From an uncultured Candidatus Peribacteria bacterium (GTDB taxonomy: Bacteria > Patescibacteriota > Gracilibacteria > Peribacterales > Peribacteraceae): DNA of 59,686 nt. Where the stretch lies: NCBI GenBank assembly GCA_964563915.1, contig CAZLYW010000002.1:1-59686 (forward strand). Reading direction: 5' to 3'. Under the pieces are notes generated by a model. The model made no database searches, was not told the origin of the DNA, and was given only the letters and a program-made list of their open reading frames with translations. Made by a program: the position numbers and the translations under genes. Below, in pieces: positions 4,198-38,821 of this stretch; the first letter of the stretch is position 1, and each line of letters starts with the position of its first letter.

Positions 4198-6984
4198 ATG
4201 CTATACTCAAGCGTAATAATGGCTTCAGAAACCGACCAAATCCTGCTCCGCATTCGCCCGTCTCTCCCCGATCCGGACGAAGTTTCGGCGTCGCGCGGGC
4301 CGTTGATGATGGAGGCGGTCCTTTCGTCTCTCCATTCTTTGAAGGGAAATGATCCTGTGAGCCTCGAAATCGGTCTCTGCGATGGGAAGATCGCTCTCTT
4401 TGTACGCTCGACACGTCGTGCGGCCCCGCTCGTCGAAAGCCAGCTCTACGCGCAGTATCCCGATGCCGAGATCGAGCCAGTGCCTGCCGATACGTTCAGT
4501 CCGCGGCAGGATGAGATCGTCCTGAGTCGGGATCTGACGCTCATCGACCCCGAGGTCTACCCGATCAAGCGGTTCCCGCAGTACGTCGACATGGTGACGC
4601 GCCAGACCATCGATACGATCGCCGGCATCACGTCCTCGATGGTGCGCTATCCCGTCTCTGGCATGCGCGGGCACGTGAGTGTCACGATCCTGCCCATTGG
4701 CAAGCGCTACCGCCGTCGAGCGCTGCGATTTTTGCCGTTGCTACTCCAGGGCCTCCCGAAACACTGGGATTGGTACGAGGATCTCTTCGCCACAGCGCAC
4801 CTTGCGCGCGGCTGGAGGCGCTTCGCGTACTTTCCGCTCGATATGCTCATGGGCGGATTCCGCGCTTGGTTCATGAAGTTACCGTCGGTGTCCCTCTCGG
4901 CCGGAGACGTGGATACGCGTGATCATGATGACGAAGAGAACGTCGTCGGCATGCGCAACCACGACCGCGAGAACAAGGAAACGGGCGCGGTCGACAAGCT
5001 CAACCGGCTGCTGTTCACCTGCAATGTCCGCGTGAGCGTCATCACCTCTGCATCCGCCCGTACAGAAGCCGAAGCGAAGATGGAGGAGATCGCCGGAAGC
5101 TTCCGACAATTCAATTTGCCGCACTGCAACGGATTCGCCGTGGGCCACCTCTGGGAGAGTACGACACTCCCGCTCGGGTTTCACGAACCTCCCTACGTCC
5201 TCTCGAACGAAGAGGTCGCAACCCTCTGGCACGTGCCCAATATTCTGGTCAAAACGCCGAATTTTGATTGGGTCCTGAGTAGAAAGTTGGAACCGCCCGT
5301 CGATCTCCCTGTTGCGGCCCCTACCTCCCAACCCTCACCCGCCGCCGCGACGGCGGCACCCTCTCCCGCAAGCGGGAGAGGGGAGAATCCCGATCAGGAT
5401 GATCTCACAGTTCTTGGAGAGGCCGTGTTCCGCGGTCACCGCACGAAATTCGGCATCCGACCCGACGACCGCCGCCGGCACATCTACACCATCGGGAAAA
5501 CCGGCATGGGCAAATCGACGCTGCTCGAGAACATGCTCTACTCGGATATCATTGCGGGAAAGGGCGTCGCGCTCATCGAACCGCACGGCGATCTCGTCGA
5601 AGCCGTCCTGAAGTTCATTCCGAAGGAGCGCACGAACGACGTGATCCTCTTCGATCCTGCCGATAAGGAGCACCCCGTCGCCTTCAACATGCTCAGCTGC
5701 AAGGATCCCGAACAAGGCGTGCTCGTCGTCTCCGGGCTCATGAGCATCTTCAAGAAAATGTGGCCCGAGGCGTTCAGTGGCCGCATGGAATACATCCTGC
5801 GCAACACCCTCCTGGCACTCATCGAAGCGGGGAACCAGTCCATGCTCGGCATCATGCGCATGTTCAGCGATCCCGCGTTCCGGAAGAAGATCCTCGAGCA
5901 CGTCGGAAACCACATGGTCAAAAGCTTCTGGGAGGACGAGTTCACGGCGTGGTCCGAAAAGTATCAGACCGAAGCGCTCGCCGCGATTCAGAACAAGATT
6001 GGCCAGCTCCTCAGTGCGCCGCTCATCCGCAACATCGTCGGCCAGGTCGTCTCCAAGGTCGATTTCCGCCACGCGATGGATACGGGGAAGATCGTCCTCA
6101 TGAACCTCAGCAAAGGACGTCTGGGAGAGGATAACTCGGCATTCCTCGGATCGATGTTCGTGACGAAGTTCCAGCTCGATGCAATGAGCAGGGCAGATAT
6201 TCCGGAGAAAGACCGGCGCGACTTCTACCTCTACGTCGACGAGTTCCAGAACTTCGCGACGGAATCCTTCGCGACGATCCTCTCTGAAGCTCGCAAGTAC
6301 CGGCTCAACTTGACCGTCGCACACCAGTACGTCAATCAGTTGCTCCTCGACGGCAACAACACCGCCTTGCGCGACGCCGTCTTCGGCAACGTGGGATCGG
6401 TCATCTGCTTCCAGGTCGGCAGCGACGACGCGGAGCCGCTCAGCGAGCAATTCGAGGAAATGGTCCTGCCAAAGGACATTCTCAGTCTGCCCAAGTACCA
6501 CGCGTACGTCCGTTTGATGATCAACGGCGTCCCCAGTAAGCCGTTCTCCGTCTCCACGCTTCCGCCGCCGGATCTGCAGCTCGATGAGAAGCGCATGGAG
6601 ACCATCCGGCGCCTTTCAAGCGAACGCTACGCCGAAGACCGCAAAACCGTCGAAGACAAGATCACCAAGTGGGTCCAGAGTGCCCGCGAGAGCGCGGGAG
6701 AAGTCAAAACTGCCGCCAAACTCAGAGAGAAAGAGGAAGAGGAGAAGAAGAAGGCGAAGGCGAAGGGCATGACGCTTGAGGACTATCGCAAGTGGCGCGA
6801 CCGCGAAATGTGGTTGAACGACTTCAACATGCTTCGGAAGAAGAAGTTCAAGGGCGAAGCCCTCACGAAGGATGACGAAGCGAAGATGGCGGAGCTTGAG
6901 AAAAAGCTCGAAGCGAGTGGGGGAGTGCCTCCTCCGAGTAAGACGATGATGGCGGAAATCGAAAAGGGGAAGAAGATGGCGTGA
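4198..6984 (+). CDS. T4SS coupling-protein-like (TraD/VirD4/TrwB-type) P-loop ATPase with a ~400-aa N-terminal domain, paralog 1
   Basis: Walker A IGKTGMGKST, EPHGDLV, Walker B FYLYVDEFQNFAT and ILSEARKYRLNLTVAHQY are present. It aligns along its whole length with the 22517-24673 ORF. The C-terminal tail is Lys/Glu-rich. Confidence 0.8.
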   Translation: MLYSSVIMASETDQILLRIRPSLPDPDEVSASRGPLMMEAVLSSLHSLKGNDPVSLEIGLCDGKIALFVRSTRRAAPLVESQLYAQYPDAEIEPVPADTFSPRQDEIVLSRDLTLIDPEVYPIKRFPQYVDMVTRQTIDTIAGITSSMVRYPVSGMRGHVSVTILPIGKRYRRRALRFLPLLLQGLPKHWDWYEDLFATAHLARGWRRFAYFPLDMLMGGFRAWFMKLPSVSLSAGDVDTRDHDDEENVVGMRNHDRENKETGAVDKLNRLLFTCNVRVSVITSASARTEAEAKMEEIAGSFRQFNLPHCNGFAVGHLWESTTLPLGFHEPPYVLSNEEVATLWHVPNILVKTPNFDWVLSRKLEPPVDLPVAAPTSQPSPAAATAAPSPASGRGENPDQDDLTVLGEAVFRGHRTKFGIRPDDRRRHIYTIGKTGMGKSTLLENMLYSDIIAGKGVALIEPHGDLVEAVLKFIPKERTNDVILFDPADKEHPVAFNMLSCKDPEQGVLVVSGLMSIFKKMWPEAFSGRMEYILRNTLLALIEAGNQSMLGIMRMFSDPAFRKKILEHVGNHMVKSFWEDEFTAWSEKYQTEALAAIQNKIGQLLSAPLIRNIVGQVVSKVDFRHAMDTGKIVLMNLSKGRLGEDNSAFLGSMFVTKFQLDAMSRADIPEKDRRDFYLYVDEFQNFATESFATILSEARKYRLNLTVAHQYVNQLLLDGNNTALRDAVFGNVGSVICFQVGSDDAEPLSEQFEEMVLPKDILSLPKYHAYVRLMINGVPSKPFSVSTLPPPDLQLDEKRMETIRRLSSERYAEDRKTVEDKITKWVQSARESAGEVKTAAKLREKEEEEKKKAKAKGMTLEDYRKWRDREMWLNDFNMLRKKKFKGEALTKDDEAKMAELEKKLEASGGVPPPSKTMMAEIEKGKKMA
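5359..5382 (+). repeat. perfect 11-bp-stem hairpin (CCCTCTCCCGC-AA-GCGGGAGAGGG) read in frame inside the T4CP-like CDS
   Basis: Direct reading. It encodes part of PSPASGRGE in a Pro/Ala-rich linker that is much shorter in the paralog. Confidence 0.85.
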
Positions 6985-16465: not shown

Positions 16466-17298
16466 GCATACGAGATCAGTTCGATTTTCCGTTCCCTGAG
16501 GAGTCTGGGAACATCCGGATTCATCAGCATCTGCAGTTCCGTCTGCCGCTGCGGATCGAGATCAAAGTCCGAACCGATCGGCGTTTGGTTCCCGGGATGG
16601 ACCATCAGTTCCGTCGTGCCTTCGGGAAGTCTCGTCAGGATATGACGGAGATTCTTCTGCGAGGCATTCCCGACGAGCGTTGCTCCGCGGAAGTGATCGG
16701 TGGTGCGAATGCCGTGCGCCGCAATGAATGTCTGTGCAGTTCGAGCCTGCACTGCCAATGCCTGCACAGCTGCCAGTTGCTCCTCTCTGATCACATACCC
16801 GAACGGGGGGAGGGGATCTTCGGCGGGGATGCGCATCATGCCGATGCCGTAGCGGTCTAGAATCGGTATCAACAAGGGAGTGACGGCCGGATGGATGTGC
16901 ATGTGATGATGTCCGTCGACGTGCGTCGGCTGTCCATGGTGATCCAAGAACCATTCGATCTGCGCCCGAATTTCACGTTCGATGTGGACGGTGTCTATCT
17001 GTCCTTCCGTAAGCGCACGCTGTTGCTCATGTCGTTGCCTGAACTCTCCGGCGGTCGACTGGAGTAGCGACCCGATGTCCTGCGGTTTGCTGATGGGAGT
17101 GCCGTCTGTGAGATTCAAATGCAATCCGGCCGGCAGACCTTTCTCCCGTGCGTGTTTTGCCGCCTGCGTGGCGTCGCTGCCGTTGCAGATGAGTGTCGCG
17201 CTGGTGACGATGCCGAACTCGAAGCTCTGAAAAATTCCATGGGTACGTGATGCATTCATCCCCAAATCGTCGGCATTGATGATGAGGCGGCGGATCAT
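16456..17298 (-). CDS. ChbG/YdjC-family carbohydrate deacetylase
   Basis: LIINADDLGM......GI......G.VTS..L, HLNLT.G, VDGHHHMH are YdjC-family motifs. Confidence 0.85.
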   Translation of the reverse strand: MIRRLIINADDLGMNASRTHGIFQSFEFGIVTSATLICNGSDATQAAKHAREKGLPAGLHLNLTDGTPISKPQDIGSLLQSTAGEFRQRHEQQRALTEGQIDTVHIEREIRAQIEWFLDHHGQPTHVDGHHHMHIHPAVTPLLIPILDRYGIGMMRIPAEDPLPPFGYVIREEQLAAVQALAVQARTAQTFIAAHGIRTTDHFRGATLVGNASQKNLRHILTRLPEGTTELMVHPGNQTPIGSDFDLDPQRQTELQMLMNPDVPRLLRERKIELISYAKM

Positions 17299-17528
17299 TT
17301 GCGTAACATCTTCTGAAGATCGTCTGCGGTCAGCTCAAGATCGTTCAAAGTGCTCTTCAATAGCCCCGTACCCAAGTCTTCATTTCCGTGGATAGGAATG
17401 ACCGTGCTGCATTCTCCATTCACACTCTCGACGAAGACGTGACTGCCTTTTTTTCGAAGAGCGACGTAGCCGTGCTTGATGAGAACTTTGAGCAATTTCT
17501 TCCCGGAGAGAACAGGAAGAGTAGTCAT
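17295..17528 (-). CDS. hicA: HicA mRNA interferase toxin
   Basis: 77 aa; LSGKKLLKVLIKHGY...RKKGSHVF......TVIPIHGNEDLGTGLLKS is the HicA pattern. Directly downstream of hicB. Confidence 0.85.
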   Translation of the reverse strand: MTTLPVLSGKKLLKVLIKHGYVALRKKGSHVFVESVNGECSTVIPIHGNEDLGTGLLKSTLNDLELTADDLQKMLRK

Positions 17529-17531
17529 GTC

Positions 17532-17756
17532 TTACAGATGTACTTCCATCTGCTCGATCGCGATGAATTTTTCCTGCGGAATGTCCTGTTTCTTTGATTT
17601 TTCAACTTCTACGCAGAGCTCTATGGCTTCCTGTAAACGCTTGTGCAGCACGGGCAAGGACTTTGCCTGCGTATGACAGCCGCGCAGCGTAGGAACGTGA
17701 GCGACGTACGTCCCATCAGCATCTTGGGTGATCACGACAGAGAAGTAATAGGTCAT
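17532..17756 (-). CDS. hicB: HicB antitoxin
   Basis: YYFSVVITQDADGTYVAHVPTLRGCHTQAKSL...L.EAIELCVE (HicB/UPF0150 fold). ATG at 17756 inside ORF 17532-17855. Confidence 0.8.
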   Translation of the reverse strand: MTYYFSVVITQDADGTYVAHVPTLRGCHTQAKSLPVLHKRLQEAIELCVEVEKSKKQDIPQEKFIAIEQMEVHL

Positions 17757-17865
17757 GTGTCTATTGTACAGAAATAAGAGGTAAACGTACACTGGTTTCC
17801 TCCGAATTCGGGCAATTGTTCGCCTCAAGCGGATGGTTAGAGTCCCATGCGTCATTTACATTCTC

Positions 17866-17942
17866 GGGCAATTAGCTCAGCCGGTTAGAGCGTTCGATTC
17901 ACATTCGAAAGGTCACTGGTTCGAATCCAGTATTGCCCACCA
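17866..17942 (+). tRNA. tRNA-Val (anticodon CAC), CCA encoded
   Basis: Cloverleaf read by hand: acceptor GGGCAAT/ATTGCCC, D arm GCTC/GAGC, anticodon stem TTCGA/TCGAA with loop TTCACAT, T arm ACTGG-TTCGAAT-CCAGT, discriminator A, CCA. Confidence 0.95.
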
Positions 17943-18070: not shown

Positions 18071-18349
18071 ATGATGTACTCTCTTTCCACGATGCAGGGC
18101 GGTTACGGCATCTTCCTGCTCCTCCGGGGGCTCTTCAACGTCTTCACCGTGATTGGCGTCCTGTTCCTCGTGGTCTGGGCCATCAAGCATCTCCCGGCGC
18201 AGAAGTTGAAGGAAGTCGGCTTGTGGTTGCTGGCCGTCGGTGTTGTCGGCACGCTCCTCCTCACATCACTCGCGATCTCCGCTCGGATGGAACTCGGCGG
18301 CGATGGCATGATGAAGAAGGCGGGGATGATGTGGGATGACGACCGGTAG
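18071..18349 (+). CDS. small membrane protein (2 TM)
   Basis: 92 aa with two hydrophobic helices (IFLLLRGLFNVFTVIGVLFLVVWAI and LWLLAVGVVGTLLLTSLAI). No homology recognised. Confidence 0.5.
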   Translation: MMYSLSTMQGGYGIFLLLRGLFNVFTVIGVLFLVVWAIKHLPAQKLKEVGLWLLAVGVVGTLLLTSLAISARMELGGDGMMKKAGMMWDDDR

Positions 18350-18374: not shown

Positions 18375-19262
18375 TCATCGCGAACGTGTCGACCCAGAGC
18401 TCTTCGCACTGCGTGATGAGGTTTTCTGCTTCTTCACGGTTGAGCGGCCAGATGCGCCGATACTCTTGCGTTCCCGTTCCTGCGCTTTGCGTTCTGCTGT
18501 CTTCACTGTTTGCTCGGCACTCTTGGCGATGGCGTCGGCGGTCTTCAAGACTTCTTTCTGTGCGATGGTGAGAACCTGCTGGCTCTTCTCGAGCTGATCC
18601 AGGAGAGACGTGGTGTCCTCATCGAGGAGAGCTCCATCGATCGCCTCCGCAATGTTCTCCAGCAACGAGACGTACCGCTCTTGCGCGAGTTGGATGGTGT
18701 TCGATGGCGTCGTGCCGGGGATGCTGTCGCTGACTGGGCCGCTGAATTTCACATCACTGACTGCGAGGGAGAGATCGTCGCCCACAGCGTAGAGCTCCGT
18801 CCATGCATCGTCGACCTCTCCGTACTCATCCTCAATGTACCCGCGTTCATCGCCCGCGAGCGTCTCGCTGGAGGCTTGCACGGCAAGTTCGCGCATGCGT
18901 TTGAGGATGTTCGCTATCTCGTTCGCGGATGCATCCGCTGTCTGTATCAGCGAGATTGCGTCATTGGTATTCCTCATTGCCTGTCGGAGAGCACGAATCT
19001 CCGCATCCAGTGCCTGCGCAACGCCGAGACCAGCCGCATCATCTGCGGCTGTGTTGATTCGGAGTCCGTTCGAGATTCGCTCGAAGACGCTACTGAGCGC
19101 CTGCTGCGTCGCGTTCAATTTGTTCTGCGCGTTGATGGCCTGCGTGTTCGTGTTGACGACGAGCGCCGCGCGAAAAACCTGGAAGTGCACGGCGGCTCCG
19201 ATGAACGTCGTGAGGAGAGCACCGCTGATGATGAGGATGTGTTTGCGTGTGAGCGTAGGCAT
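18375..19262 (-). CDS. membrane-anchored flagellin N-terminal-domain protein (no flagellin C domain)
   Basis: Residues ~35-150 (NTNTQAINAQNKLNATQQALSSVFERISNGLRINTAADDAAGLGVAQALDAEIRALRQAMRNTNDAISLIQTADASANEIANILKRMRELAVQA) match the flagellin D0/D1 N-domain almost motif for motif. A TM helix (ILIISGALLTTFIGAAV) precedes this region. The C-terminus is helical and basic and lacks the flagellin C-terminal signature. Confidence 0.8.
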   Translation of the reverse strand: MPTLTRKHILIISGALLTTFIGAAVHFQVFRAALVVNTNTQAINAQNKLNATQQALSSVFERISNGLRINTAADDAAGLGVAQALDAEIRALRQAMRNTNDAISLIQTADASANEIANILKRMRELAVQASSETLAGDERGYIEDEYGEVDDAWTELYAVGDDLSLAVSDVKFSGPVSDSIPGTTPSNTIQLAQERYVSLLENIAEAIDGALLDEDTTSLLDQLEKSQQVLTIAQKEVLKTADAIAKSAEQTVKTAERKAQERERKSIGASGRSTVKKQKTSSRSAKSSGSTRSR

Positions 19263-19276
19263 ACTGATATTATATA

Positions 19277-20260
19277 CTATTTTTTAATTTCAGGCAAATC
19301 ACAGACCACCTGCAAAGGGCGAACCTGATGATCCAGAACCTTTCCTTGTATCCACTGGTCGATGCTGCGGAAGCAATCGTTGAACATCGTGCGCATGCTG
19401 TCGTCGGCGTAGAAGGCGATGTGCGGGGTGGTGACGACATGCGGGTGGCTGACGAGCTCCTTGTTCTCTTCGAAGTTCTGCTCGTGCTCCAGGACGTCGA
19501 GGAGCGCCCAGTGGAGTGTGCCCTTCTTCAGTGCGGCGAGGAGCGCGTGAGAATCGATTAATGATCCCCGGGCCGTGTTCACGAGCACGGCTCCCGGCTT
19601 CATCAGCGTGAATGCTTTTGCATCGATGATGTGCTCGGTTTCCTTCGTTCCGGGGATGTGGAGCGTCACGATGTCGCTCTCTTTGAGGAGTTCGGGGATG
19701 GTCACGTACCGAACACCCAGGAGATCTTCAATTTCCGTATTGCGACACTGGTCCACTGCGAGGATCTTCATCCCGAAGCCGTGCGCGATCCTCGCGACTT
19801 TCCGGCCGATCTTCCCCGTCCCGACGATGCCGATCGTCCTCCCGCGCAGGGCCATGCCACGGAGTCCGTGGTAATCGAAGGTGCCGCTCCGCACCTTCGC
19901 ATCACCTGCATGAACGTGTCGGATCGTCGCAAGGAGCAATGCAAACACGTGCTCGGCGATCACATGCGAGCCGTAGTCGGGAACATTGCTCACCAGAACG
20001 CCGCGCTCTATACAGGCCTCGAGGTCGATGTGGTCGTACCCGACCGAGCGCGTCGCGATCAGTTTCACCTTCGGCAGCTTCTCGATCACCGCGCGAGTGA
20101 ACTGCGTTGTGATGAACGGGGAGATGATCTCCGTGTCACGGCAGGCCTGAATCAACTCTGCCCCAGAGATCTTTCCCTCTGCGAACGTCGCGTCCGGAAA
20201 CTTCTCCAGCACCACCTTGCGATCCGAGGGCTCGACGTCGAGAAAGAGGAGGGAGGGCAT
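19277..20260 (-). CDS. D-isomer-specific 2-hydroxyacid dehydrogenase (D-lactate dehydrogenase-like)
   Basis: NAD fold GIVGTGKIGRKVA, ...LVNTARG..ID..AL...L, catalytic ...TPHIAF. ATG at 20260 (the track start at 20278 is TTG). Confidence 0.9.
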   Translation of the reverse strand: MPSLLFLDVEPSDRKVVLEKFPDATFAEGKISGAELIQACRDTEIISPFITTQFTRAVIEKLPKVKLIATRSVGYDHIDLEACIERGVLVSNVPDYGSHVIAEHVFALLLATIRHVHAGDAKVRSGTFDYHGLRGMALRGRTIGIVGTGKIGRKVARIAHGFGMKILAVDQCRNTEIEDLLGVRYVTIPELLKESDIVTLHIPGTKETEHIIDAKAFTLMKPGAVLVNTARGSLIDSHALLAALKKGTLHWALLDVLEHEQNFEENKELVSHPHVVTTPHIAFYADDSMRTMFNDCFRSIDQWIQGKVLDHQVRPLQVVCDLPEIKK

Positions 20261-20290
20261 GCGGGAAGTATAACGCAATACCCGTCATCG

Positions 20291-20842
20291 CTACGGCACC
20301 TCCGCGAACAAGTCATCATCGGAAATGGGCGAGCAATCAGCCTGCCATTGTTGAACGTCCGCAGCTTTCAGCCGCAACGAGAAGTACATCCTCGTCAGCG
20401 CCCCACCGGCATTCGGGAATGTGTCCAATAATCGCGTGAGGAGGACGACCAGCTTGCGCGTGTTCGCATCCGGCGGTTCCTTCCATCCCCGCGAGAATCT
20501 CGGTCCGAGAATTTGGAGGAGGTACGCCGGGAATTGCGGATCGCCGCGTTCGGGCCGCGGCATCGGGGATGCGCTTGGTGTCGGAGGTGCAAGTACGGAA
20601 ACTATAGGTGGAACGGTACTTGCGAGAGCATGGGGATTGTCTACATTGATTACGAGGGTGAAGTCATTCCTGTGCTCCCAGCAGTGAACGGTAGGAATAT
20701 CGATTCCGTACGCCGCGAGTGTTCTCTTCAGGTCACGCGTACCGCGTTTCTTATGCAGCTCGGCGAAGCGGACGACATTCTCCTTCTGCACTTCCGTGAA
20801 CTTCCTCCGTCTTCCCTCCTCCGTTTTGGGGAGCGTCCCCAT
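20291..20842 (-). CDS. hypothetical protein with an HTH-like N-terminus; possibly the frameshifted C-terminal part of the upstream ORF
   Basis: KFTEVQKENVVRFAELHKKRGTRDLKRTLAAYGIDIPTVHCW resembles IS3-OrfA-type HTH modules. This frame is already open from 20923, inside the 3' end of ORF 20728-22509. Confidence 0.5.
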   Translation of the reverse strand: MGTLPKTEEGRRRKFTEVQKENVVRFAELHKKRGTRDLKRTLAAYGIDIPTVHCWEHRNDFTLVINVDNPHALASTVPPIVSVLAPPTPSASPMPRPERGDPQFPAYLLQILGPRFSRGWKEPPDANTRKLVVLLTRLLDTFPNAGGALTRMYFSLRLKAADVQQWQADCSPISDDDLFAEVP

Positions 20843-22509
20843 GAATTGCAGGAGTCCGTCGTATTCACTCTGTTCTTGAACGGAGAGCGTCGATGGTGGT
20901 GCAGAGATGCGCCATCCTCCGAGTCATCGGCTGCTTGCTCCAGCTGGCGCCCGATTATCGTGTAGGGGCGATCTGCCGTGACCGGATCCTGCGTGGCAGA
21001 CGCTATGCGAGGAAGGTGCGTCACGCAGTACTTGAACGTCGACAGTGCCATGTCGCCTCCGCGCTTCCTGACGATCTCTTCCATCAGACGTTCCTGCGTT
21101 CCCGATTCCGTCGCTTCGAGTACAGCGGTGAGAAAGTCGTGCAGCTCTCGGGCTGTCGGCGTACTCTTCAGCGTCGGCACCGTATCCTCCCACCGTTGGG
21201 CCGGCGCGCGGGTAACCGATACTCTCGGTTTGGCCGGGGGTTCGGAGACGGGCGTTACTGTCTTCCGCACCCCGTGATGCGCGGCGATGATGTAGAAGGG
21301 GTAGACGAATTCCCCGCCATTGCGTTCTCGTTCGGCATCGACGTTCTCGATCAGTCCCTCAATGTACGCTCTCCGCTGGTCCACCGGTACCTGGCTATGG
21401 ATCAGGGCGGCGAGATATGGGGATGATGCTGGAGTCGCTGCTCTCACGATCAGATTCGGTTCCAGCACGTGCGTCTCGAATCCTGTCTGGTGCAAGGTTG
21501 TTCTGTACTTCTGCAGAATCGGCTCGTGGTCCGCAGCATCGCGCGCCTTTGACTCCAGATCGAGCATGGACCTCCGCATGCGCTCGGGTTGCAGGAGGAG
21601 GAGCAACCCGTCGGGGGCCAACTGCTTCGAGCACCGGCGGATCAGTTCCCCGCAGTCTTGCTGCGAGAGGGTTCCTCTTCGCATGCCGTTGATGACGATG
21701 ATGTCGTGTGATCGTCTCGCACTCTCCGGGGGCAAGCACCCAGGCAGGACTCTCCAAGTGTCGCGCATCCTGCTCGTCGCCAACTGCTTCGCCGTACTCT
21801 CGCTTCCCGCGAGGACGGTGACCGTCGCGCAAGCGTGCTGGAGGGCATGAGCGAGGTCAAGCGTTTCGTCCCGGATCAGGAGATGTCGGTGCGCCGCAGT
21901 TCCACTCGTTCCCGCAAAATGCCGTCGAACGACGTTCACGACGTTCTGCCGCATGAGCGAGAGTGCCTTGTGCTCTAGCACTGCGGCGTATGTGTCCATG
22001 ATCGTATCCCAGGAGTCTTCGGATGGAACCGATTCGAGTCTCTGGCATTCTTCCAGCACCGATCGGTATGTCGCTCGGTCACCTTTTCCGAAGATTCTCT
22101 CGAAGATCGCAGCGGTGAGCTGCGGAGAACGGGGCAGGGGAGACCCCATCTCGGCGCAGAATTGGGAGAACTGCCGTTCAATCTCTCGTCGTTCGGGATG
22201 ATCTGCTAACTCGGGAATCCGCGCCAGCATGGTCTCCAGTTTGGAGGCTTTGCTCGCCGGGAGTTCAGAGATCCAGCGCAGGAACGGATCGTCGAACGGT
22301 GGAGGATTGGCGTCAAGATCCCACAGCGCGTCGACCGCTTCCGGGAGGGCGAGCGCTTCCGGTTCATCCCCCGTCATAGCCTGCAAGAGCTGCAGGTGTG
22401 TAACATCATTCGTTGTGACGACGGTTTCCCGCGCGGCCACGCCCGCATCGGATGGCGGCGCTTCGGGAACTGGCGGCTGGATATGGAGCAGACTGCGCAT
22501 GTGGGGCAT
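20728..22509 (-). CDS. hypothetical 593-aa protein with a degenerate class-I methyltransferase-like core
   Basis: HLLIRDETLDLAHAL...VTVLAGSES...HDIIVINGM...LIRRCSKQLAPDGLLLLL follows Rossmann-MTase spacing but lacks the Gly-rich SAM loop. The last ~55 aa are Arg/Ser/Cys-rich and look out of frame. Confidence 0.6.
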   Translation of the reverse strand: MPHMRSLLHIQPPVPEAPPSDAGVAARETVVTTNDVTHLQLLQAMTGDEPEALALPEAVDALWDLDANPPPFDDPFLRWISELPASKASKLETMLARIPELADHPERREIERQFSQFCAEMGSPLPRSPQLTAAIFERIFGKGDRATYRSVLEECQRLESVPSEDSWDTIMDTYAAVLEHKALSLMRQNVVNVVRRHFAGTSGTAAHRHLLIRDETLDLAHALQHACATVTVLAGSESTAKQLATSRMRDTWRVLPGCLPPESARRSHDIIVINGMRRGTLSQQDCGELIRRCSKQLAPDGLLLLLQPERMRRSMLDLESKARDAADHEPILQKYRTTLHQTGFETHVLEPNLIVRAATPASSPYLAALIHSQVPVDQRRAYIEGLIENVDAERERNGGEFVYPFYIIAAHHGVRKTVTPVSEPPAKPRVSVTRAPAQRWEDTVPTLKSTPTARELHDFLTAVLEATESGTQERLMEEIVRKRGGDMALSTFKYCVTHLPRIASATQDPVTADRPYTIIGRQLEQAADDSEDGASLHHHRRSPFKNRVNTTDSCNSWGRSPKRRREDGGSSRKCRRRMSSASPSCIRNAVRVT

Positions 22510-22516: not shown

Positions 22517-24673
22517 TCAAATCAGCGGTTCTTCAAATTGTTCTTCAACTGCCGCCTGTTCCTCCTTGCTCGGCGGAGCGGCTGCAGCTTCATCCCACTT
22601 CCTCATGAACTCCTCCACCTCGGCCTTCGGGAGGCAGTACTTCTTCCGCGAGGCGGCGATGATTTCTCTGGTGAAGTCCTTCTCCACTTTGGGGACGTCC
22701 AGCGTGCGTCCCGAGAACGCTTCGCGTAGTTCACCGTTCACCGACATCTTGATGTAGAACTCGCGGACGCCCAGGTTGATGATGTCGCGCTCCTTGAAAG
22801 TGGGCGTGTACTCCTCGGCTAGGATTACCGCGTCCTCGGCGCCGACGCGGAAGTTGATGATGGAACCGACGTTGCCGAAGACGGTTTTGCGGACGACGTC
22901 CGAAAGCTGGCCCATGTACTGGTGCGCGAGCGTCATATTCAGCTTGTACTTGCGGGCTTCCGAGAGGATTTCGGCGAAGGTGTCCGTCGCGAAAATCTGG
23001 AACTCGTCGACGTAGAAGTAGAAGTCTGTTCGTTTCTCTTCGGGGGTATCTGCCCTGCTCATCGCTGCCTGGTACAGTTTCGTGATGAACATCGATCCGA
23101 TCAAAGACGAGTTCTCCTCCCCCAGCAGCCCCTTGGAGACTTTCATCAGCATGATCTTCTTCTTGTCCATGATCTCGCGGATGTCGAATTTCGTCTTCGG
23201 CTGGCCGATGATGTTCCTAATCATATTCGTCGCGACGAACTGACCGACTTTGTTGAGCAGAGGGGTGATCGCGTCGGCATCGAACTTCTCGCTCCACGCA
23301 GCGAACTCCGCGACCCAGAAGTTCTTCACCACGGAGTCCTGGATCCGCGCGACGATCTTCTGTCGATAATTCTTGTCCGTGAGCATCTTCAGGATGCTCA
23401 AGACCGTCGTATTCGGACTATCGAGGAGAGCGAGCGTCGTGTAGCGCAGAACGTGTTCGAGACGATCGGACCAGTTATTCCCGAAGAGCTTCTTGAAGAT
23501 CTGGAGGAAGCCGAGCGTCACCTGCATCTTGAACGCGTCATCAACTTTTTCGAGCGGGTTGAATGCGATGGGGAATTCCGTATCACCCGGATCGAGCAGG
23601 ATCACGTCGTCGATGCGGTTCTCGGGGATATACCGCAGAATCGCATCGACCAGGTCACCGTGCGGATCGAGGACGGCGATGCCTTCCCCGTTCTTCAGGT
23701 CTTCGTTGATGAGCAGTTCCAGCAATTTGCTCTTGCCCGCGCCGGATTTCCCGACGGTGTAGAGGTGACGTCGGCGATCGCTCCGGCGAATCCCGAACGA
23801 CACGAAATTGTTGTGGTAGTTCGTCAATCCGAACGCGCTGACCTCCTTCTCCCCCTGCTTCGGCAGGTCCTGCGGCGGATCGGATTTGCGTGCGAGGACG
23901 TGGACGATGTGCGGGACAGAGTCGGCGTTGGGAAAGTGGTACAGCGTCGCAACTTCCTTGGCGTTCAGGACAAAGGGAGTCGCGTGTATGCGCGCGCGGT
24001 AGCTCGCGATGAATTTGGTGGTGTTCTGCACGTGGTGCCCGTGCATCTCGTTGATGTCTTTCTCGTTGAACTGCGAAAAACTCGCAACCACCGCGTCCAA
24101 GTGACGGCCGGCCGTCGCGGTATCCTTGGCGACGTAGGCGCAGCGGATGCTGACGCGGAACGGTTTTATCGTGGCCTTCTCTGCGGCTTTCTCATGTCGC
24201 CGGTGGCCGACGCCCTTTCGGCCGCCCTCACGCAGTCGATCACGCACCGAGAAGAAGTGCCCGACGTCCGCGCGCCGCCGCCGCCAGTTTCTCAAGTAAT
24301 GGAACGCGCCCGTATCGTTCTGCGGTTCCGAGATGATCTGCACCCACACTTGGTCATCGCGTCCGATTTTCGAGATGACGGAGAAGAGGCGCGACCCACT
24401 GTCCTCCTCAAACACATCGTACGTCTTGATCGGATAGATGTCACTGTGGTGCAGCGAGACTTCTGCGCCGGCGAGTGTCTGCTTCGATGGATCGAAGTTC
24501 AGTGTGTAATCCTTCATCTCCTTCACTTCGGCGTCGGGAAAAGTCGCGTAGATCAACCCTTCCACCGTTTCGTACAAGTTTTCCTCCAGAACGATGAAGA
24601 AGTACGTGTACTGGGCGTAGCCGTAGAATTCGAGCGATACGCGCTTGCCCGTGAAGGTGTTCCACAGATTCAC
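22517..24673 (-). CDS. T4SS coupling-protein-like P-loop ATPase, paralog 2
   Basis: HLYTVGKSGAGKSKL, DPHGDLVDAIL, FYFYVDEFQIFAT and ILSEARKYKLNMTLAHQY are present. It aligns over its whole length with 4198-6984. GTG start. Confidence 0.85.
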   Translation of the reverse strand: MNLWNTFTGKRVSLEFYGYAQYTYFFIVLEENLYETVEGLIYATFPDAEVKEMKDYTLNFDPSKQTLAGAEVSLHHSDIYPIKTYDVFEEDSGSRLFSVISKIGRDDQVWVQIISEPQNDTGAFHYLRNWRRRRADVGHFFSVRDRLREGGRKGVGHRRHEKAAEKATIKPFRVSIRCAYVAKDTATAGRHLDAVVASFSQFNEKDINEMHGHHVQNTTKFIASYRARIHATPFVLNAKEVATLYHFPNADSVPHIVHVLARKSDPPQDLPKQGEKEVSAFGLTNYHNNFVSFGIRRSDRRRHLYTVGKSGAGKSKLLELLINEDLKNGEGIAVLDPHGDLVDAILRYIPENRIDDVILLDPGDTEFPIAFNPLEKVDDAFKMQVTLGFLQIFKKLFGNNWSDRLEHVLRYTTLALLDSPNTTVLSILKMLTDKNYRQKIVARIQDSVVKNFWVAEFAAWSEKFDADAITPLLNKVGQFVATNMIRNIIGQPKTKFDIREIMDKKKIMLMKVSKGLLGEENSSLIGSMFITKLYQAAMSRADTPEEKRTDFYFYVDEFQIFATDTFAEILSEARKYKLNMTLAHQYMGQLSDVVRKTVFGNVGSIINFRVGAEDAVILAEEYTPTFKERDIINLGVREFYIKMSVNGELREAFSGRTLDVPKVEKDFTREIIAASRKKYCLPKAEVEEFMRKWDEAAAAPPSKEEQAAVEEQFEEPLI

Positions 24674-24807: not shown

Positions 24808-26517
24808 TCAGTATACGGTCTTCAGATAGCATTCCTCGCAGTAGACGGTTTCGGGCCTCTCCGGCGCCCATGTCGTTCGGATCTCTTTGCGGCACTTGGC
24901 GCAGCTGCGCGTCCAGAATTTCCGGGGATTGCGTTGTGCGAACCGGTCGAAATGCCGCTGCTGCCATGATTTGCGAGGAGGCGGCAGTCCATGATCGCGA
25001 TAGAAGCGTAATTCTTGCGGGAGAATTTTGAAGGGACGTCCCGTCACTTCGCATTGGATGGCCCATTGGAGAATGTCATCGGGAACATCATTGCTGTTAT
25101 CGAGCAGGCGACTGCCCGGAATCACTTTGGTCGCTTTCGGCGGCGGAAGTTCGGTATCGTCCCACCGGATATTGCTTTTGACAGCGTCAGATTTCTTCAG
25201 CGGATAGTACTGCTGGGCAGTCGTCTTGTTATAGCCGAACGGGGAAATGCTCATCGGGAGAAATTCGCCCCACTCGCCGGTCTTCTTCATGTGCTCGGCA
25301 AGCTTCCCGGCGGTAACTTCGTATTCTTCCGGTGAATATTGCCTGTTCAAGATGCAGTGTTTCGCCCGGGAAATGTTAACGCAGCCGAAACAGTTCTTGC
25401 ACCGCTCGGCATACCAGCAATACGTGAGGTCCGAGGTCGTGTGGCCTCCGTAGCTGAAGAGGAGATGATAGCTGTTCTCTCCGACAATCGCAGACTCGTA
25501 GGACTGCTGCAAGTTGAGGCCATATTGATAGATGTCCTGCACGTCTTTGGCGCCGGTGACGACCTGGTAGAGGAATTTTCCCTGCTCGACGTTTTCACAA
25601 TCAAAGCTCGCATGGACGTTTTTGCAGTTATTCAAGTGGTCCCCCGAGCTGTTTTCGACGTTGTTCCCCTGAAAGAATTTAAAGTGATGTCTCGCTTCTA
25701 GATTTTTGCGCTCGGCTGCGCACTCGTTGCATTGGCGGTATGAACGGAGTGAATACTCTTTCATTTTTTTCTCATATTCGCCGCGTGTCATCTGCTGATT
25801 ATTGAAACAGTACTCTGCATTGCGAAGCCCCACGCAGAGGAAGCAATTCCTGCAGCCGATGCAATCCCGTAAAAATGCGGAATCGGAGCAGTTTGCGCAA
25901 TCCTGGCAGTGAACCAGCCCGTAGCACTTGAGCACGTCCACGCAGTCATAACATCGCTCGCAGTGCAGGTTGTAGAATCCGTCGATGCATGAGCGATTAT
26001 ATTTGAATCCGTATCCGTACATGCAGTCTTCGCAGAAGTCGGCGTGCATGATCAGGTAGCAGTTCTTCGAACTGCCAGCGAAGTGGATATATTCGGAGTT
26101 CACTAATTCCCCCTGCACGTCGAGTGCGAGCGACGGAACGGAACGCTTCAGCTCCGCGAGCTGCTCAAAGAACGGTCGCGAGAAATTGATCTCCCGTCCG
26201 TACGACAGAGCATCACACTTGTCGCTATGCCAACACTCGCGGCAGTAATAGGGAATTCCGCTGCCGGCTGGGAATTGTGTCAGCGTGCGTTTTGTACAGA
26301 GCCCGCACTGGCCGGGGTAGAGATTCTGCTCGTTGCATTGCGCCAGCCGTCTCTGTTGCCGGCAATCGGGACAGTGTGTCGGCGGCGGGATCAGATATTT
26401 CTTACCCGCGAAGACCGGCGATACACGGTCGTAGAAAGCGAGATCGTCCTGCGTGATCTCGAAGGATTGCTTGCACCAGGGGTTTGCGCAGATCTTCATG
26501 AGTGCTGATTCTATCAT
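24808..26517 (-). CDS. Cys-rich repeat protein with N- and C-terminal zinc-ribbon modules
   Basis: Dense CxxC arrays (CEDC, CERCYDCVDVLKC, CQDCANC, CIGCRNCFLC, CKNCFGC). The two terminal modules resemble each other (..FY(D/R)...P.P..C/R..R....RN....C..C...I.T......VYC.EC(W/Y)). Confidence 0.75.
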   Translation of the reverse strand: MIESALMKICANPWCKQSFEITQDDLAFYDRVSPVFAGKKYLIPPPTHCPDCRQQRRLAQCNEQNLYPGQCGLCTKRTLTQFPAGSGIPYYCRECWHSDKCDALSYGREINFSRPFFEQLAELKRSVPSLALDVQGELVNSEYIHFAGSSKNCYLIMHADFCEDCMYGYGFKYNRSCIDGFYNLHCERCYDCVDVLKCYGLVHCQDCANCSDSAFLRDCIGCRNCFLCVGLRNAEYCFNNQQMTRGEYEKKMKEYSLRSYRQCNECAAERKNLEARHHFKFFQGNNVENSSGDHLNNCKNVHASFDCENVEQGKFLYQVVTGAKDVQDIYQYGLNLQQSYESAIVGENSYHLLFSYGGHTTSDLTYCWYAERCKNCFGCVNISRAKHCILNRQYSPEEYEVTAGKLAEHMKKTGEWGEFLPMSISPFGYNKTTAQQYYPLKKSDAVKSNIRWDDTELPPPKATKVIPGSRLLDNSNDVPDDILQWAIQCEVTGRPFKILPQELRFYRDHGLPPPRKSWQQRHFDRFAQRNPRKFWTRSCAKCRKEIRTTWAPERPETVYCEECYLKTVY

Positions 26518-27463: not shown

Positions 27464-28576
27464 TCAGTACACCTCTTTCAGATAGCACTCCTCGCAATAG
27501 ACGATCTCTGGCCGGTCGGGCCCGTATGTCGTCCGGATCTCCCTCCCGCACTGGCCGCACGATCGCGGGTAGAGTTTGATGCCCGACCGCCGAGCAATCC
27601 GTTCATCGTGTCGGACATCCGGATGTTTGCGCGGCAGAGGGAGATCCATTTGCCGGTAGAACGCGAGCTCCTGCTTGATGATGCGGAACAGGCGGCCGGT
27701 CGCAATGCAGGTGACCGCCCAGTCGGTTACATCGTCGGGAACGTCGGCAATCGACAGCGGGAGCTTCTCCGCGGGAATCACTTTCTTCACGTTCGGTTTC
27801 TCATCCGATGGCTCACGCCACGTATACCCGCGCTTCAACGCTTCAGACTTCGTTAACGGAAAGTACTCCATCGCAATCGTCTCGTTGAATGCGAACGGAC
27901 AGAAGTGCTTGGGGAAGTATTCGCCCCACTCTGATGTTTTGCGCATGTGGTCGATCAATCGGGAGCGCAATGTCTTGAACTCGCTCTCGGAGTACTGCTT
28001 GTTGAGGATGCAGAACTTCTTCTTACGCGCGCCAATGCATCCGAAGCAGTCACTACAACCCGTACAGTGAGCGCAATACTCCAGGTTGCTGTTCCCCGTC
28101 GTGCAGGTCGTGCAGAACTTCAGGTTGTACGCATTGTCTCCGCTGGAGGACGTCTGGTAGACCAGTTCCGCCTTGTCGCCCCAGGAGTTGTAATCCATGC
28201 AGGACTTCGCCGAGAAGACGCGCGCGCAGCGGACGCAGTCTTCCAGGTCTTTGCAGTCGTAGCAGTCGATCGAATCCTTGGAATCGTAGAGGTGGTTACC
28301 GGCGCTGTTCTGGTTGTGCTCGTTCTGGACGGGCTTGTGCGGCTGCGTCCGGAAGAAGTCATCAGCGCGCTTTCTCATCGCCTGCAACCCGTCATACGTA
28401 TTCAACTTCAATGCCGCTTTCTGCTTTTCATATTCCTCTTTCGTCAGTTGCTTGTTCAGAATCATGCGACTCTTCTGTCGTTGGTTGATGCAGCCGATGC
28501 AGTCGCGGCATCCAATGCAGTTGTCCAGAAAGACACTCTCGCTACAGGTCTGACATTCCTTGACAACAAGATGTTT
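27464..28576 (-). pseudogene. 5'-truncated paralog of the Cys-rich zinc-ribbon protein
   Basis: It aligns with the C-terminal ~370 aa of 24808-26517 (CIGCRDCIGC, CSDCFGC, identical VYCEECYLK end). Homology stops at ~28576. Upstream in frame there is no ATG/GTG/TTG, only translated antisense of a plus-strand ORF. The first in-frame ATG is at 28465. Confidence 0.6.
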
Positions 28577-28978
28577 AAATGTAAAATGAACACGATGAAT
28601 ACCAGCGCCTACGATGAAGAGCTCGGCAGACTCCAGAGTACGTACGACGAGGCTGTAGCGAAGCTTGAGGAGCTCGAAGCGTCTCTGCTCAAGGGAACGC
28701 TCTCCGCGGAGCAACAGTCTCTTGCCACTGAGTACTGGTTGACTATGGTGCAGTGCGACGGCAGCGCCCGGCAGCACTATGCTCATGCGCTGAGATACGG
28801 GAATCTGACGTTCGAAGAGCGCTACGGAGGAACACATCAGCAGATTGAATTTGCATTGCAGGACTACAAGCTGCAATTGGCGGAAGCGGTGGATGACGAT
28901 GACGGCGGAGACGTCACGGAAGCGGGGACGGGATATTTCACTGATGCCGGACAGGCGGATGATTTGCCGGATAAATGA
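28571..28978 (+). CDS. hypothetical acidic coiled-coil protein
   Basis: The 3' third of ORF 27947-28978 reads as a plausible protein (SAYDEELGRLQSTYDEAVAKLEELEASLL...DDDDGGDV). Candidate ATGs are at 28571, 28586 and 28595. The ORF ends 25 nt before the RluA-type gene. Confidence 0.45.
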   Translation: MFKCKMNTMNTSAYDEELGRLQSTYDEAVAKLEELEASLLKGTLSAEQQSLATEYWLTMVQCDGSARQHYAHALRYGNLTFEERYGGTHQQIEFALQDYKLQLAEAVDDDDGGDVTEAGTGYFTDAGQADDLPDK

Positions 28979-29003
28979 GTAACCGGGACTGTAGACTCTC
29001 CGC

Positions 29004-29666
29004 ATGTCCATCTCTCGCGACCGTATCCTCTACTGTGACGACACGATCCTCGCCGTGAGTAAGCTGGCGGGGGAATTAGTTGTAAAGGGTTTCGGGAACG
29101 TGCAGAAGCTGCCGCTCCTCGATTTCCTCAGGAAGGAGTATCCTGGCATTCACCCCCTCAATCGTCTGGACTTCGAGACATCGGGGGTCGTCCTCTTCGC
29201 GCGCAACAAGAAGATTCTCGCGGAAGTCCTCGCGTCAAAATTCAAAGGCTGGAAGAAGATCTACCGGACGATCGTCGCGGGGAGAATCAAGCAGGATCGC
29301 GGCGAGATCACCATGCCGTTGCCTGCGAGAGTAAAAAAGGAAGGCAACGTCACCGCAATGACTCGCTACAAGGTTCTCCAGCGGTTCGAGAATTCTACGT
29401 ATGTAGAAGTAGAGATCGAGACCGGCCGGCACCACCAGATCCGCCGGCACTTCGCGATGATGTACCATCCACTGATCCTCGATCAGATCTATGGGGATGA
29501 GAAGGTCAATCGCAAGTTCTCGAAGCAGCTCGGGTACCGCCGGTTCTTCCTGCATGCGTGGAAAGTTCAGCTTCCCCATCCGGTGAGCGGCAAAGAGGTG
29601 ATCATCGAAGCGCCGATGCCGAAGGCATTCATCAATGTATTGAAGGAGTTGGGCATTGGGGATTAG
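29004..29666 (+). CDS. RluA-family pseudouridine synthase
   Basis: NRLDFETSGVVLFA (catalytic Asp motif), ...YRTIV.G..., TGR.HQIRRHF. Confidence 0.9.
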   Translation: MSISRDRILYCDDTILAVSKLAGELVVKGFGNVQKLPLLDFLRKEYPGIHPLNRLDFETSGVVLFARNKKILAEVLASKFKGWKKIYRTIVAGRIKQDRGEITMPLPARVKKEGNVTAMTRYKVLQRFENSTYVEVEIETGRHHQIRRHFAMMYHPLILDQIYGDEKVNRKFSKQLGYRRFFLHAWKVQLPHPVSGKEVIIEAPMPKAFINVLKELGIGD

Positions 29667-33892: not shown

Positions 33893-35017
33893 TTAAGAAA
33901 CATGTTCAAGGATGTGGACGCCGCAGGTGGCAGCCGCTCCGCCGAAGTTATGAGCGAGTCCAAAACGATTTCCGCTCTTCTCCATTTGCTTCGCAACATC
34001 GATGACTTGTTTGATGCCCGTGGCGCCGACGGGATGGCCGCAACCTTTGAGGCCGCCGCTCATATTCACGCCGAGCCCGGTTGGTTTCCCATCGAACAGA
34101 TTCCTGTAGACATGAATGCCTTGCCCGGGATCGCAGAAGCCGAGATCTTCAAGATTGATCAATGCCGCGATGGAGAAGCAGTCGTGCGTCTCGAGCACGT
34201 TCACGTCGTTCAACTTGATCTCCGCTTCGGTCAGAGCGCGCTCCGCGGCGTCTTTGGTCGCCGAGAACGAGGTGATGACTGGTCGGTGGAGGATGCTCAG
34301 GCTATCGCTCGCAATCTGCGATGCGGCAATCCGAACGCCGCTCACGTGTTCGCTCGAGAGAATGCACGCCGCGGCGCCGTCGCTGATCGGCGAGCAGTCG
34401 AGCAGCCGCAGGGGGTCGCTGATCATCGCGCTCTTCGTGACGGTTTCCGGGTTGATTTCCTGCCGGAATTGCGCGAAGGGGTTCCGGCAGGCATTGCGGT
34501 GATGCACCGCGCTGACCAGGCTCAAATCCTCTCTACTGAGGCCGAAGTCGTGCATGTAGCGCTGCGCGATCAGGCCGAAGATGCCGGGGAAGGTGAGGCC
34601 GGCCGGCCGCTCCTCCTCGCTATCCGCAGCCCCCATCAGCGCTGATGCTACCGTGTCCACCGATACATCCGTCATCTTCTCGACGCCGATCACGAGGACG
34701 TTCCTCGCTCTGCCACTTTCGAGCATCGCGCAGGCCGTATGAAGCGCAAACGCTCCCGAGCCGCAGGCGGACTCCACTCTCAATGCGGGAGGATGATGCG
34801 GAAGCAGAGAGGAAGCGATCGCCGCCAGGTGCGCCTGGCCGTTCGTCACCTCTGCGAGCATGTTACTGACGATGATCATGTCGATATCGAGGGCAGTGCA
34901 CGGAGAGGAGGAGATGGCGGCGTCGGTAGCTTCTTCCATCAGGTCGCGGATGCTTTTGTCCCAGAGCTCGCCGAAGCGAGTTTGGCCGTGGCCGATGAGG
35001 TGGACAACGGAGTTCAC
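33893..35017 (-). CDS. archaeal-type (SCP-x-like) acetyl-CoA C-acetyltransferase (thiolase)
   Basis: GHGQTRFGE, VESACGSGAFALHTA (active-site Cys), C-terminal NMSGGLKGCGHPVGATG. GTG start. Confidence 0.9.
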   Translation of the reverse strand: MNSVVHLIGHGQTRFGELWDKSIRDLMEEATDAAISSSPCTALDIDMIIVSNMLAEVTNGQAHLAAIASSLLPHHPPALRVESACGSGAFALHTACAMLESGRARNVLVIGVEKMTDVSVDTVASALMGAADSEEERPAGLTFPGIFGLIAQRYMHDFGLSREDLSLVSAVHHRNACRNPFAQFRQEINPETVTKSAMISDPLRLLDCSPISDGAAACILSSEHVSGVRIAASQIASDSLSILHRPVITSFSATKDAAERALTEAEIKLNDVNVLETHDCFSIAALINLEDLGFCDPGQGIHVYRNLFDGKPTGLGVNMSGGLKGCGHPVGATGIKQVIDVAKQMEKSGNRFGLAHNFGGAAATCGVHILEHVS

Positions 35018-35021
35018 GGGC

Positions 35022-35057
35022 GAAAAATTGAAAATTGAAAATGGAAAATTGAAAATG
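35022..35057. repeat. GAAAATT/GAAAATGG word run in the HMGS/thiolase spacer
   Basis: GAAAAATTGAAAATTGAAAATGGAAAATTGAAAATG. The same words occur at 38767-38817 and 40566-40591. Confidence 0.8.
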
Positions 35058-35064
35058 CTGGACT

Positions 35065-36090: not shown

Positions 36091-36165
36091 CCGGTGGAGT
36101 ATAGCATGGATATTTTTTGTATTCGCAGCGGTTGACCTCATTGCGAATTCTGATACCGTGCGCAC

Positions 36166-36258
36166 GGAGGGTGCTCAAGGGGCATTCTTGTGCTTCTTGA
36201 GCATCCTCCACCTACGACGCAGGCCAGGGCGAAAGCCTTGAGACCTGCGTCGTTTTTT
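36166..36258 (+). terminator. two-hairpin module ending in a plus-strand intrinsic terminator (candidate small antisense RNA 3' end)
   Basis: GGAGGGTGCTCAAG (36166-79) pairs with CTTGAGCATCCTCC (36196-209), 13/14. Then ACGACGCAGG (36214-23) pairs with CCTGCGTCGT (36244-53) perfectly and is followed by TTTTT, on the plus strand only. All neighbouring genes are on the minus strand. Confidence 0.45.
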
Positions 36259-37590: not shown

Positions 37591-37754
37591 AAATAAACAA
37601 CTCAAAGAAAAATTTTTACATCAAGTTCACTCCTTTCCGATATGTGTCACTTTGCATTCTAAACCTTCAGCGATGAGTCCTACCCGAAGGTTCGTTTCTG
37701 CGATATCGTCGCCAAGAACAATGATTTGCCTCATGGTCAAATCCTATACCAATT

Positions 37755-38765: not shown

Positions 38766-38766
38766 G

Positions 38767-38817: not shown

Positions 38818-38821
38818 TTTC

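Follow-up and report, generated by a model that had tools for sequence, protein, structure and literature searches.

Export of flagellin normally goes through the flagellar type III system, and its assembly depends on both terminal domains. Spirochetes possess a sheath protein, FlaA, that is exported through Sec with a cleaved signal peptide and associates with flagellin polymers outside the cytoplasm. In Campylobacter jejuni, as Song and colleagues reportedly described in 2004, the flagellin homolog FlaC is secreted, lies outside the filament and binds other cells. The flagellins p5 and p6 of Sphingomonas sp. A1 (PDB 2zbi, 3k8v and 3k8w) are found at the cell surface and bind alginate, an acidic polysaccharide, with high affinity at their spoke region (PMC9751261). 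Known flagellins with roles outside the filament retain both terminal domains and sit in flagellated bacteria, unlike the family that we describe here. Its query member is encoded on contig CAZLYW010000002.1, of which we refer to the whole stretch from 1 to 59,686 as the window; the source organism is a tiny groundwater Peregrinibacteria bacterium of a lineage reported to be flagellum-less.

The protein fuses a flagellin N-domain to an export-type hydrophobic segment in front and to a non-flagellin module behind, and this fusion is conserved in lineages reported to lack flagella. We propose that this is probably not a motility subunit but a flagellin-derived extracellular or surface protein, and that it leaves the cell through Sec without the flagellar type III system. 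The initial annotation of the gene, made from the sequence alone, had pictured a membrane-anchored protein with an exapted flagellin fold rather than a motility gene. The view of an exapted fold agrees with what we found, namely an intact architecture, no flagellar context and a lineage reported to be flagellum-less. Because the intact architecture is kept in about 18 clusters, domain re-use (exaptation) is a reasonable description. The architecture and the distribution of the family are well supported, and its function, including the surface or host-interaction role suggested in the initial annotation, is not.

Flagellin N-domain, signal-like extension and C-terminal module

The gene is a complete coding sequence at 18375..19262 on the minus strand, taken from the list of open reading frames (ORFs), with an ATG start, 295 codons for amino acids and a TGA stop. 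The identical protein occurs on four other assemblies, and full-length homologs are 31-60% identical to it. The flagellin helices ND0, ND1a and ND1b occupy residues 33-170 (18753..19166, minus strand). A flagellin N-terminal consensus had been recognised over residues ~35-150, and profile searches bear this out with significant matches. Pfam Flagellin_N (PF00669) matches residues 36-150 on profile positions 1-115 of 139 (E = 2.7e-29, 102 bits against a cutoff of 26.6). When we aligned the family with canonical flagellins using hhalign, mature residues 1-136 fell on canonical residues 2-137 (probability 100%, E = 1.8e-62, 63% consensus identity), and the alignment ended at TEFNG, the beginning of the flagellin beta-hairpin. 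Solved flagellins align only to query residues 33 to ~150 (E down to 4e-25). About 20 NCBIfam flagellin models also cover only residues 33 to ~150, all of them scoring far below their cutoffs (best score 114.4 bits versus a cutoff of 332, NF009444), and the FlgL model TIGR02550 reaches 58.7 bits versus 127.2 (E = 6e-16) over the N-terminal 111 residues only.

An AlphaFold2 (AF2) model of the mature form (predicted local distance difference test, pLDDT, 73; predicted template modeling score, pTM, 0.62) places helices at residues 2-38, 46-99 and 105-138, which agree with the limits of ND0, ND1a and ND1b in Salmonella FliC. Invariant in the family are NTN, the GLRIN.AADDAAGL block, ILKRMRELAVQ and E146. 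By alignment to 1UCU, the invariant residues R122, L126, Q129 and E146 correspond to FliC R90, L94, Q97 and E114, which are conserved subunit-contact residues that are also recognised by TLR5.

Residues 1-32 (19167..19262, minus strand) form a segment that resembles a Sec signal peptide. We judged this layout heuristically, from the Kyte-Doolittle hydropathy profile and a table of the -3 and -1 residues. In the query, R6 and K7 make up a basic n-region, residues 9-25 form the hydrophobic core, the c-region reads HFQVFRA and position -1 is Ala. Its sole hydrophobic segment lies at residues 9-27 (19-residue Kyte-Doolittle mean 2.02), and beyond residue 45 no segment rises above 0.78. An extension of 27-40 amino acids with the same layout precedes the flagellin start in all 18 family members. 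It opens with one or two basic residues, continues as a hydrophobic core (15-residue mean, measured in 13 members, 1.9-2.7) and closes with a polar c-region of 6-9 residues in which Pro or Gly is frequent. At -1, 18/18 members have a small residue (A, G or S), and at -3, 10/18 have A, V or T. Examples of the junction, marked here by a slash, are YAHA/SIVINTN, NAMA/ALVVNTN, GASA/ALVVNTN, NVSA/ALVVNTN and NARA/GIVINTN; in the query subclade it reads VFRA/ALVVNTN, with Phe or Leu at -3.

This junction is fixed in all members at one residue before the canonical flagellin start (A-L-V-V-N-T-N), so that the cut falls at canonical residue 2. The canonical flagellin Met codon has been replaced throughout by one for A, G or S, which is the -1 residue; since this Met is missing in 18/18 members, translation must begin upstream. 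A predicted cut after residue 32 of the query would release the exact canonical flagellin N-terminus, with ALVVNTNTQAINAQNK as the mature start peptide. Among the 120 best matches, a comparable extension is present only in family members, barring a few start-codon miscalls. Neither an LPXTG sorting signal nor a lipobox cysteine is present in any of the 18 members. The layout is that of the long Sec type I signal peptides associated with Gram-positive bacteria.

The initial annotation had taken this segment for a transmembrane helix that anchors the protein. The hydrophobic segment is there as it described; the anchor fares less well, given a family layout that is that of a Sec type I signal peptide. 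As an uncleaved signal anchor, the segment would keep the helical, flagellin-like domain attached to the cytoplasmic membrane on its outer side. The uncharged stretch from I9 to F30 in the query, at 22 residues, is long enough to span a membrane, AF2 shows the segment as one continuous helix with ND0, and position -3 is occupied by Phe in P0001, P0002 and P0004 and by Leu in P0003, P0006, P0007 and P0122. Yet P0008, P0011, P0017, P0020, P0031, P0123 and P0125, in the remaining half of the family, show classical cleavage sites (A-x-A or V-x-A) together with a helix-breaking Pro or Gly, the junction keeps its position and its small -1 residue even though the sequence of the extension is not conserved, and the basic C-terminal tail (see below) already offers a means of surface retention. 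An anchor is overall a rather unlikely reading. From the sequence features of the extension, a cleavable signal peptide appears more likely than a membrane anchor at the family level. For the query itself we lean modestly towards cleavage at residue 32; with Phe at its -3 position, cleavage is uncertain there and the segment may persist as an anchor.

The second half of the protein departs from flagellin. Residues 171-187 (18702..18752, minus strand) are a variable and probably disordered linker (pLDDT < 50, identity 0.22, length varying among members) in the position of the canonical beta-hairpin and D2/D3 insertion. They are followed by an amphipathic helix pair of 26 and 54 amino acids that is specific to the family (residues 188-270; 18453..18701, minus strand). 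In the AF2 model these helices span 188-213 and 217-270 (pLDDT 79-89), ~80 residues in total, which is close to the length of CD1 plus CD0. The protein ends in a disordered tail rich in Lys, Arg and Ser (residues 271-295; 18378..18452, minus strand; pLDDT < 50), which carries a net charge of +8, the body of the protein being at -16. All 18 members share this arrangement, the last 25 amino acids being basic (+3 to +11) on a body of -1 to -22, and the tail is conserved by composition, not by sequence.

The gene had been described as lacking a flagellin C-domain, with the reservation that a frameshift might hide one, and three kinds of search support its absence. Pfam gave no Flagellin_C match to the query even at E ≤ 1, and Flagellin_C (PF00700) was found in 0/13 family C-halves. 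Aligned by hhalign with canonical Flagellin_C, the family C-half had a probability of 0.36%. Finally, we ran the Flagellin_C hidden Markov model (HMM), with filters off, over six-frame ORFs of at least 40 amino acids from the window and from four related loci (L005, L007, L008 and L010); nothing better than E = 2 was found, and canonical flagellin loci, used as positive controls, scored 1e-31 to 1e-48. A frameshifted, split or separately encoded C-domain was therefore ruled out for the window and these four loci, where the six-frame search was empty. A cryptic, diverged Flagellin_C was rejected at the sequence level, given the hhalign result and a full-length profile alignment that ends at canonical residue 137. 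Weak Pfam matches in the family (GAPES4, FadA, cytochrome b562 and others) were non-significant and were dismissed as helical noise.

Distribution, constraint and proposed role of the family

The first homology search returned two groups: a handful of proteins covering 81-100% of the query and carrying Flagellin_N only, and thousands of two-domain flagellins whose match was limited to the N-terminal 40-55%. We then searched 1.84 billion representative proteins with a profile of the C-half, using no word index (E ≤ 0.001). This exhaustive search gave 16 matches, 13 of them family members (262-300 amino acids) and 3 unrelated helical or repeat proteins, and the module was found only in the flagellin-N family. 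With the 90%-identity clusters of the first search added, there are about 18 distinct members, all of which keep the same architecture at 262-305 amino acids. A genome scan with the single protein was swamped by canonical flagellins and recovered one family member. In literature combining flagellin with Peregrinibacteria, Candidate Phyla Radiation (CPR) or Patescibacteria, we found no description of a flagellin N-domain protein with a Sec signal.

As far as its members can be named, the family is confined to CPR, namely Peregrinibacteria and an Uhrbacteria-like lineage. P0007 comes from Candidatus Peregrinibacteria bacterium Greene0416_19, and the window is syntenic with this metagenome-assembled genome (MAG; dCTP deaminase 81%, SHMT 76%, YdjC 62%, DnaX 58%, flagellin-like protein 41%). 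The contig of the second clade (P0063) carries a PilB ATPase whose best named relatives are Candidatus Uhrbacteria at ~70% identity. Members are labelled "flagellin" or "hypothetical protein" in databases, and the former label could lead to CPR bacteria being mistaken for motile ones.

Family members are on average identical in pairs at 0.60 of positions in ND0, 0.56 in ND1a, 0.33 in ND1b and 0.22-0.27 in the linker, C-terminal helices and tail; judged by these figures, the N-domain is under strong constraint and the C-terminal part is fast-evolving. In a close relative (L090, the contig of P0002), the 593-amino-acid neighbour is 92%, the dehydrogenase 77% and the flagellin-like protein only 57% identical to the window, and compared with window positions 18375-22509 the order of the dehydrogenase and flagellin-like genes is swapped. 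By these comparisons the flagellin-like gene appears to be the fastest-evolving of the block shared with L090, at a pace typical of exposed proteins. Between the window and the four other assemblies identity is 99.99-100%, with no difference at all in the flagellin-like gene, so a selection test based on single-nucleotide polymorphisms is uninformative.

The family N-domain is as near to one canonical group (P0010 and P0012-P0018, ~70-75%) as to other family members, and that group is itself only 46-50% identical to Sandaracinaceae or Polyangia flagellins. The midpoint root of a neighbour-joining tree of N-domains falls inside the family, and the tree is therefore silent on a single origin. 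We also observed that these nearest canonical flagellins come from non-CPR bacteria. Their best named GTDB matches are Sandaracinaceae, Polyangiaceae and Polyangia MAGs, and one locus (L088, 9100-11858) has three tandem full flagellins on a kinase-rich 145-kb non-CPR contig with a large Ser/Thr kinase. Myxobacteria are classically regarded as non-flagellated, which makes the Polyangia flagellin matches notable.

One member, P0124 (273 amino acids), has lost the GLRIN.AADDAAG and KRMRELAVQ motifs and keeps the signal-like segment and the C-half; it may reflect relaxed constraint or a further change of function. This degraded motif, the gene call of P0009, which begins at an internal start, and the "flagellin" label given to P0007 by one source are what might be expected if the gene were a decaying remnant or a mis-annotated ordinary flagellin, that is, truncated or frameshifted and called from a wrong start, in a genome with present or recently lost flagella or as a horizontal fragment brought in recently. 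We regard this as extremely improbable. No Flagellin_C is found in any frame of the window or of the four related loci, the canonical Met is absent from every member, and the NCBIfam flagellin scores are far below their cutoffs (114 versus 332 bits). The architecture is intact across two CPR lineages at 31-60% identity, with a strongly constrained N-domain. The base composition also equals that of the genome: the gene has a GC content of 58.3% and 70% GC at third codon positions, the same as the window, which argues against a recent insertion and makes any transfer ancient.

The initial annotation had noted that no fli, flg, flh or mot gene occurs in 59 kb, and our scans concur: Pfam found no Fli, Flg, Flh or Mot family in 40 window ORFs or in the matches over 8.4-23.9 kb. 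Six other genomic contexts of the family likewise yielded no flagellar genes. According to reviews and comparative work, CPR largely lack flagellar genes, and cryo-electron microscopy of these bacteria shows no flagella (PMC13293708, PMC7137472). The paper on complete Peribacteria genomes mentions type IV pili and sortase and never flagella (PMC4736985).

We favour export through Sec rather than through type III secretion, with considerable confidence, because these lineages are not expected to possess a type III apparatus and the segment looks like a signal peptide. In the model that we propose, signal peptidase I would cut after the small -1 residue and free a native-like flagellin N-terminus outside the cell, which is probably single-membrane (monoderm-like). 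The new C-terminal helices would stand in for CD1 and CD0, packing against ND0 and ND1 to give a stable helical bundle. Foldseek best matches of the mature model are flagellins consisting of D0/D1 only (~250-265 columns, probability 1.0), and the model leaves about even chances that the helices substitute for CD1/CD0 and complete a D1/D0-like bundle. The basic tail might hold the acidic body electrostatically to anionic polymers of the envelope or to the surface of another cell; we consider such retention plausible, with the chances somewhat against it.

Three observations weigh against this proposal. First, signal peptidase I disfavours Phe or Leu at -3, the residues found there in the query and its nearest relatives. 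Second, the Foldseek TM-scores (template modeling scores) to flagellins are low, at 0.27-0.37, with 0.31-0.37 for the top-ranked D0/D1-only flagellins; because of this, the replacement of CD1/CD0 by the new helices is argued from helix order and length only. Third, an all-against-all comparison of neighbours in six contexts showed no conserved partner gene and only lineage-level synteny.

The conserved contact surface (ILKRMRELAVQ, E146 and NTN) would be kept for protein-protein contacts, most likely self-association into a fibre or layer, and such a surface structure could be used for attachment in an episymbiotic life style. Self-association or adhesion through this surface, as suggested by the conservation of its residues, is a tentative idea to which we give less than an even chance by some way. 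A more specific version, in which the mature protein polymerises outside the cell via D0/D1 contacts into a Sec-dependent, non-rotary flagellin fibre or lattice that holds host cells, seems improbable to us. If it were true, flagellin assembly would be uncoupled from the type III export apparatus, and the invariant NTN and LxRxRELAVQ motifs would be kept for assembly and not for type III export.

The same conserved surface could instead be directed at a host, the secreted ND0/ND1 acting as a flagellin mimic that binds the filament, cap or monomers of a flagellated host for attachment or interference. The filament grows under a cap from inside its channel, which would leave external subunits with limited access. 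The case for a mimic is circumstantial: the N-domain is 72-75% identical to the canonical P0010 and P0012, as near as to family members; the residues that form filament subunit contacts are invariant; all cultivated CPR are episymbionts on other microbes (PMC12206443); and the lineage that makes the protein is reported to be without a flagellum that it could serve. Self-assembly or stability of the fold explains the high conservation equally, and we consider host mimicry very unlikely.

Attachment proteins of ultra-small episymbionts are mostly unknown. Here the N-half of flagellin, alone and probably on the Sec pathway, is joined to a new C-terminal partner and a basic tail and is strongly constrained in bacteria reported to be flagellum-less. 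Confirmation of its function would make the family a clear example of ultra-small episymbionts turning a domain of a filament subunit into a surface protein. For flagellin itself, the family is a natural experiment in which residues for folding or assembly, still invariant, can be told apart from those for type III export or for binding a chaperone, which the family can do without.

The locus and its neighbours

The flagellin-like gene had been placed 14 nucleotides downstream of a 2-hydroxyacid dehydrogenase, at the end of a same-strand string with a Cys-rich protein and a coupling-protein paralog, and the coordinates agree on each point. The dehydrogenase ORF (19277..20278) stops 14 nucleotides before the ATG, and further upstream on the minus strand are a VirD4/TraG-like protein (22517-24673) and then a protein with 7% Cys (24808-26517). 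A consensus scan also gave a sigma-70-like promoter match, TTGCCT-17-TATAAT, at 19269..19297 on the minus strand (10/12 positions); this is weak evidence, as chance alone would give 0.8 matches of this quality in the scanned region. With a -10 element that stops 6 nucleotides short of the ATG and no recognisable Shine-Dalgarno sequence upstream, the transcript may be leaderless. The flagellin-like gene is single-copy at each locus examined.

On its downstream side, a 92-amino-acid ORF with hydrophobic stretches (18071-18349, plus strand) converges on the flagellin-like gene, with 25 nucleotides between the stops. It has no Pfam match, and in the close relative L090 a homolog (47-65% identity) is found at the corresponding position. 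A HicA/HicB toxin-antitoxin pair (17295-17855, minus strand) and a tRNA-Val(CAC) (17866-17942, plus strand) are also just downstream, and this tRNA region is likewise conserved close to the gene in the Peregrinibacteria MAG.

Elsewhere, the window encodes GyrA, HrcA, a TrpRS/TyrRS-type synthetase, Maf, ribosomal protein S1, ClpB and Dus, as well as YdjC, dCTP deaminase, DnaX, SHMT, MgtE and ProA/ProB. At 33893-39625 on the minus strand are a thiolase, an HMG-CoA-synthase-like protein, HMG-CoA reductase, diphosphomevalonate decarboxylase and a GHMP kinase, followed by UppS. Two Cys-rich proteins (24808-26517, 7.0% Cys, and 27464-29011, 5.2% Cys, both on the minus strand) each end in a weak treble-clef zinc-finger match (PF23477). 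This mevalonate block and the Cys-rich proteins fit the published Peribacteria genomes (PMC4736985). In the Uhrbacteria-like clade, a 172-amino-acid protein of the PF23477 family lies directly upstream of the family gene (L007, 6465-6983). Paralogs of VirD4/TraG/TrwB-like coupling proteins are encoded at 4198-6984 (plus strand) and 22517-24673 (minus strand), and a PrgI-family protein at 53025-53738 (minus strand); all three belong to type IV secretion or conjugation-like machinery, unrelated to flagella, in a small genome of CPR type.

Comparison with known flagellin-derived systems

The nearest known proteins are flagellins made of D0/D1 only, such as Bacillus subtilis Hag and Shewanella oneidensis FlaA/FlaB (PDB 5wjv, 9oxj, 9oxk and 9lah). 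ND0, ND1a and ND1b are homologous to theirs residue for residue, the order of the helices is similar, these short flagellins are the top Foldseek matches, and the lengths are close (263 amino acids in the mature family protein versus 270-304). Cys is absent or nearly so in the family, as in flagellins generally. The short flagellins differ in possessing the Flagellin_C region (CD1/CD0) that filament assembly requires, which the family lacks, and in having a bare type III N-terminus (M-A-x-x-I/V-N-T-N) where the family has a Sec-type segment. The disordered basic tail, the missing flagellar gene context and scores under every NCBIfam cutoff set the family further apart.

Among proteins with other roles, FlaC of Campylobacter resembles the family as a small flagellin-derived protein acting outside the filament, a role that for the family is predicted. 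Unlike the family, FlaC has both terminal regions and no signal peptide, and it is exported via the flagellar apparatus of a flagellated bacterium. Sphingomonas p5 and p6, which are among the sequence matches of the query, share with it a flagellin homology and a surface role other than motility (again predicted for the family); in contrast to it, they are complete two-domain flagellins in flagellar gene sets, able to form a flagellum and without a Sec signal. FlgL (TIGR02550) shares the helical Flagellin_N region with the query, through a match much weaker than those of the flagellin models, and differs from the family as a flagellar type III substrate encoded inside flagellar operons. Spirochete FlaA differs in not being homologous to flagellin and in working with complete periplasmic flagella. 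The family protein is therefore not to be filed as a flagellin, despite its homologous N-half, because it has no C-domain and no bare N-terminus, falls below the score cutoffs and has no flagellar context in the available sequence.

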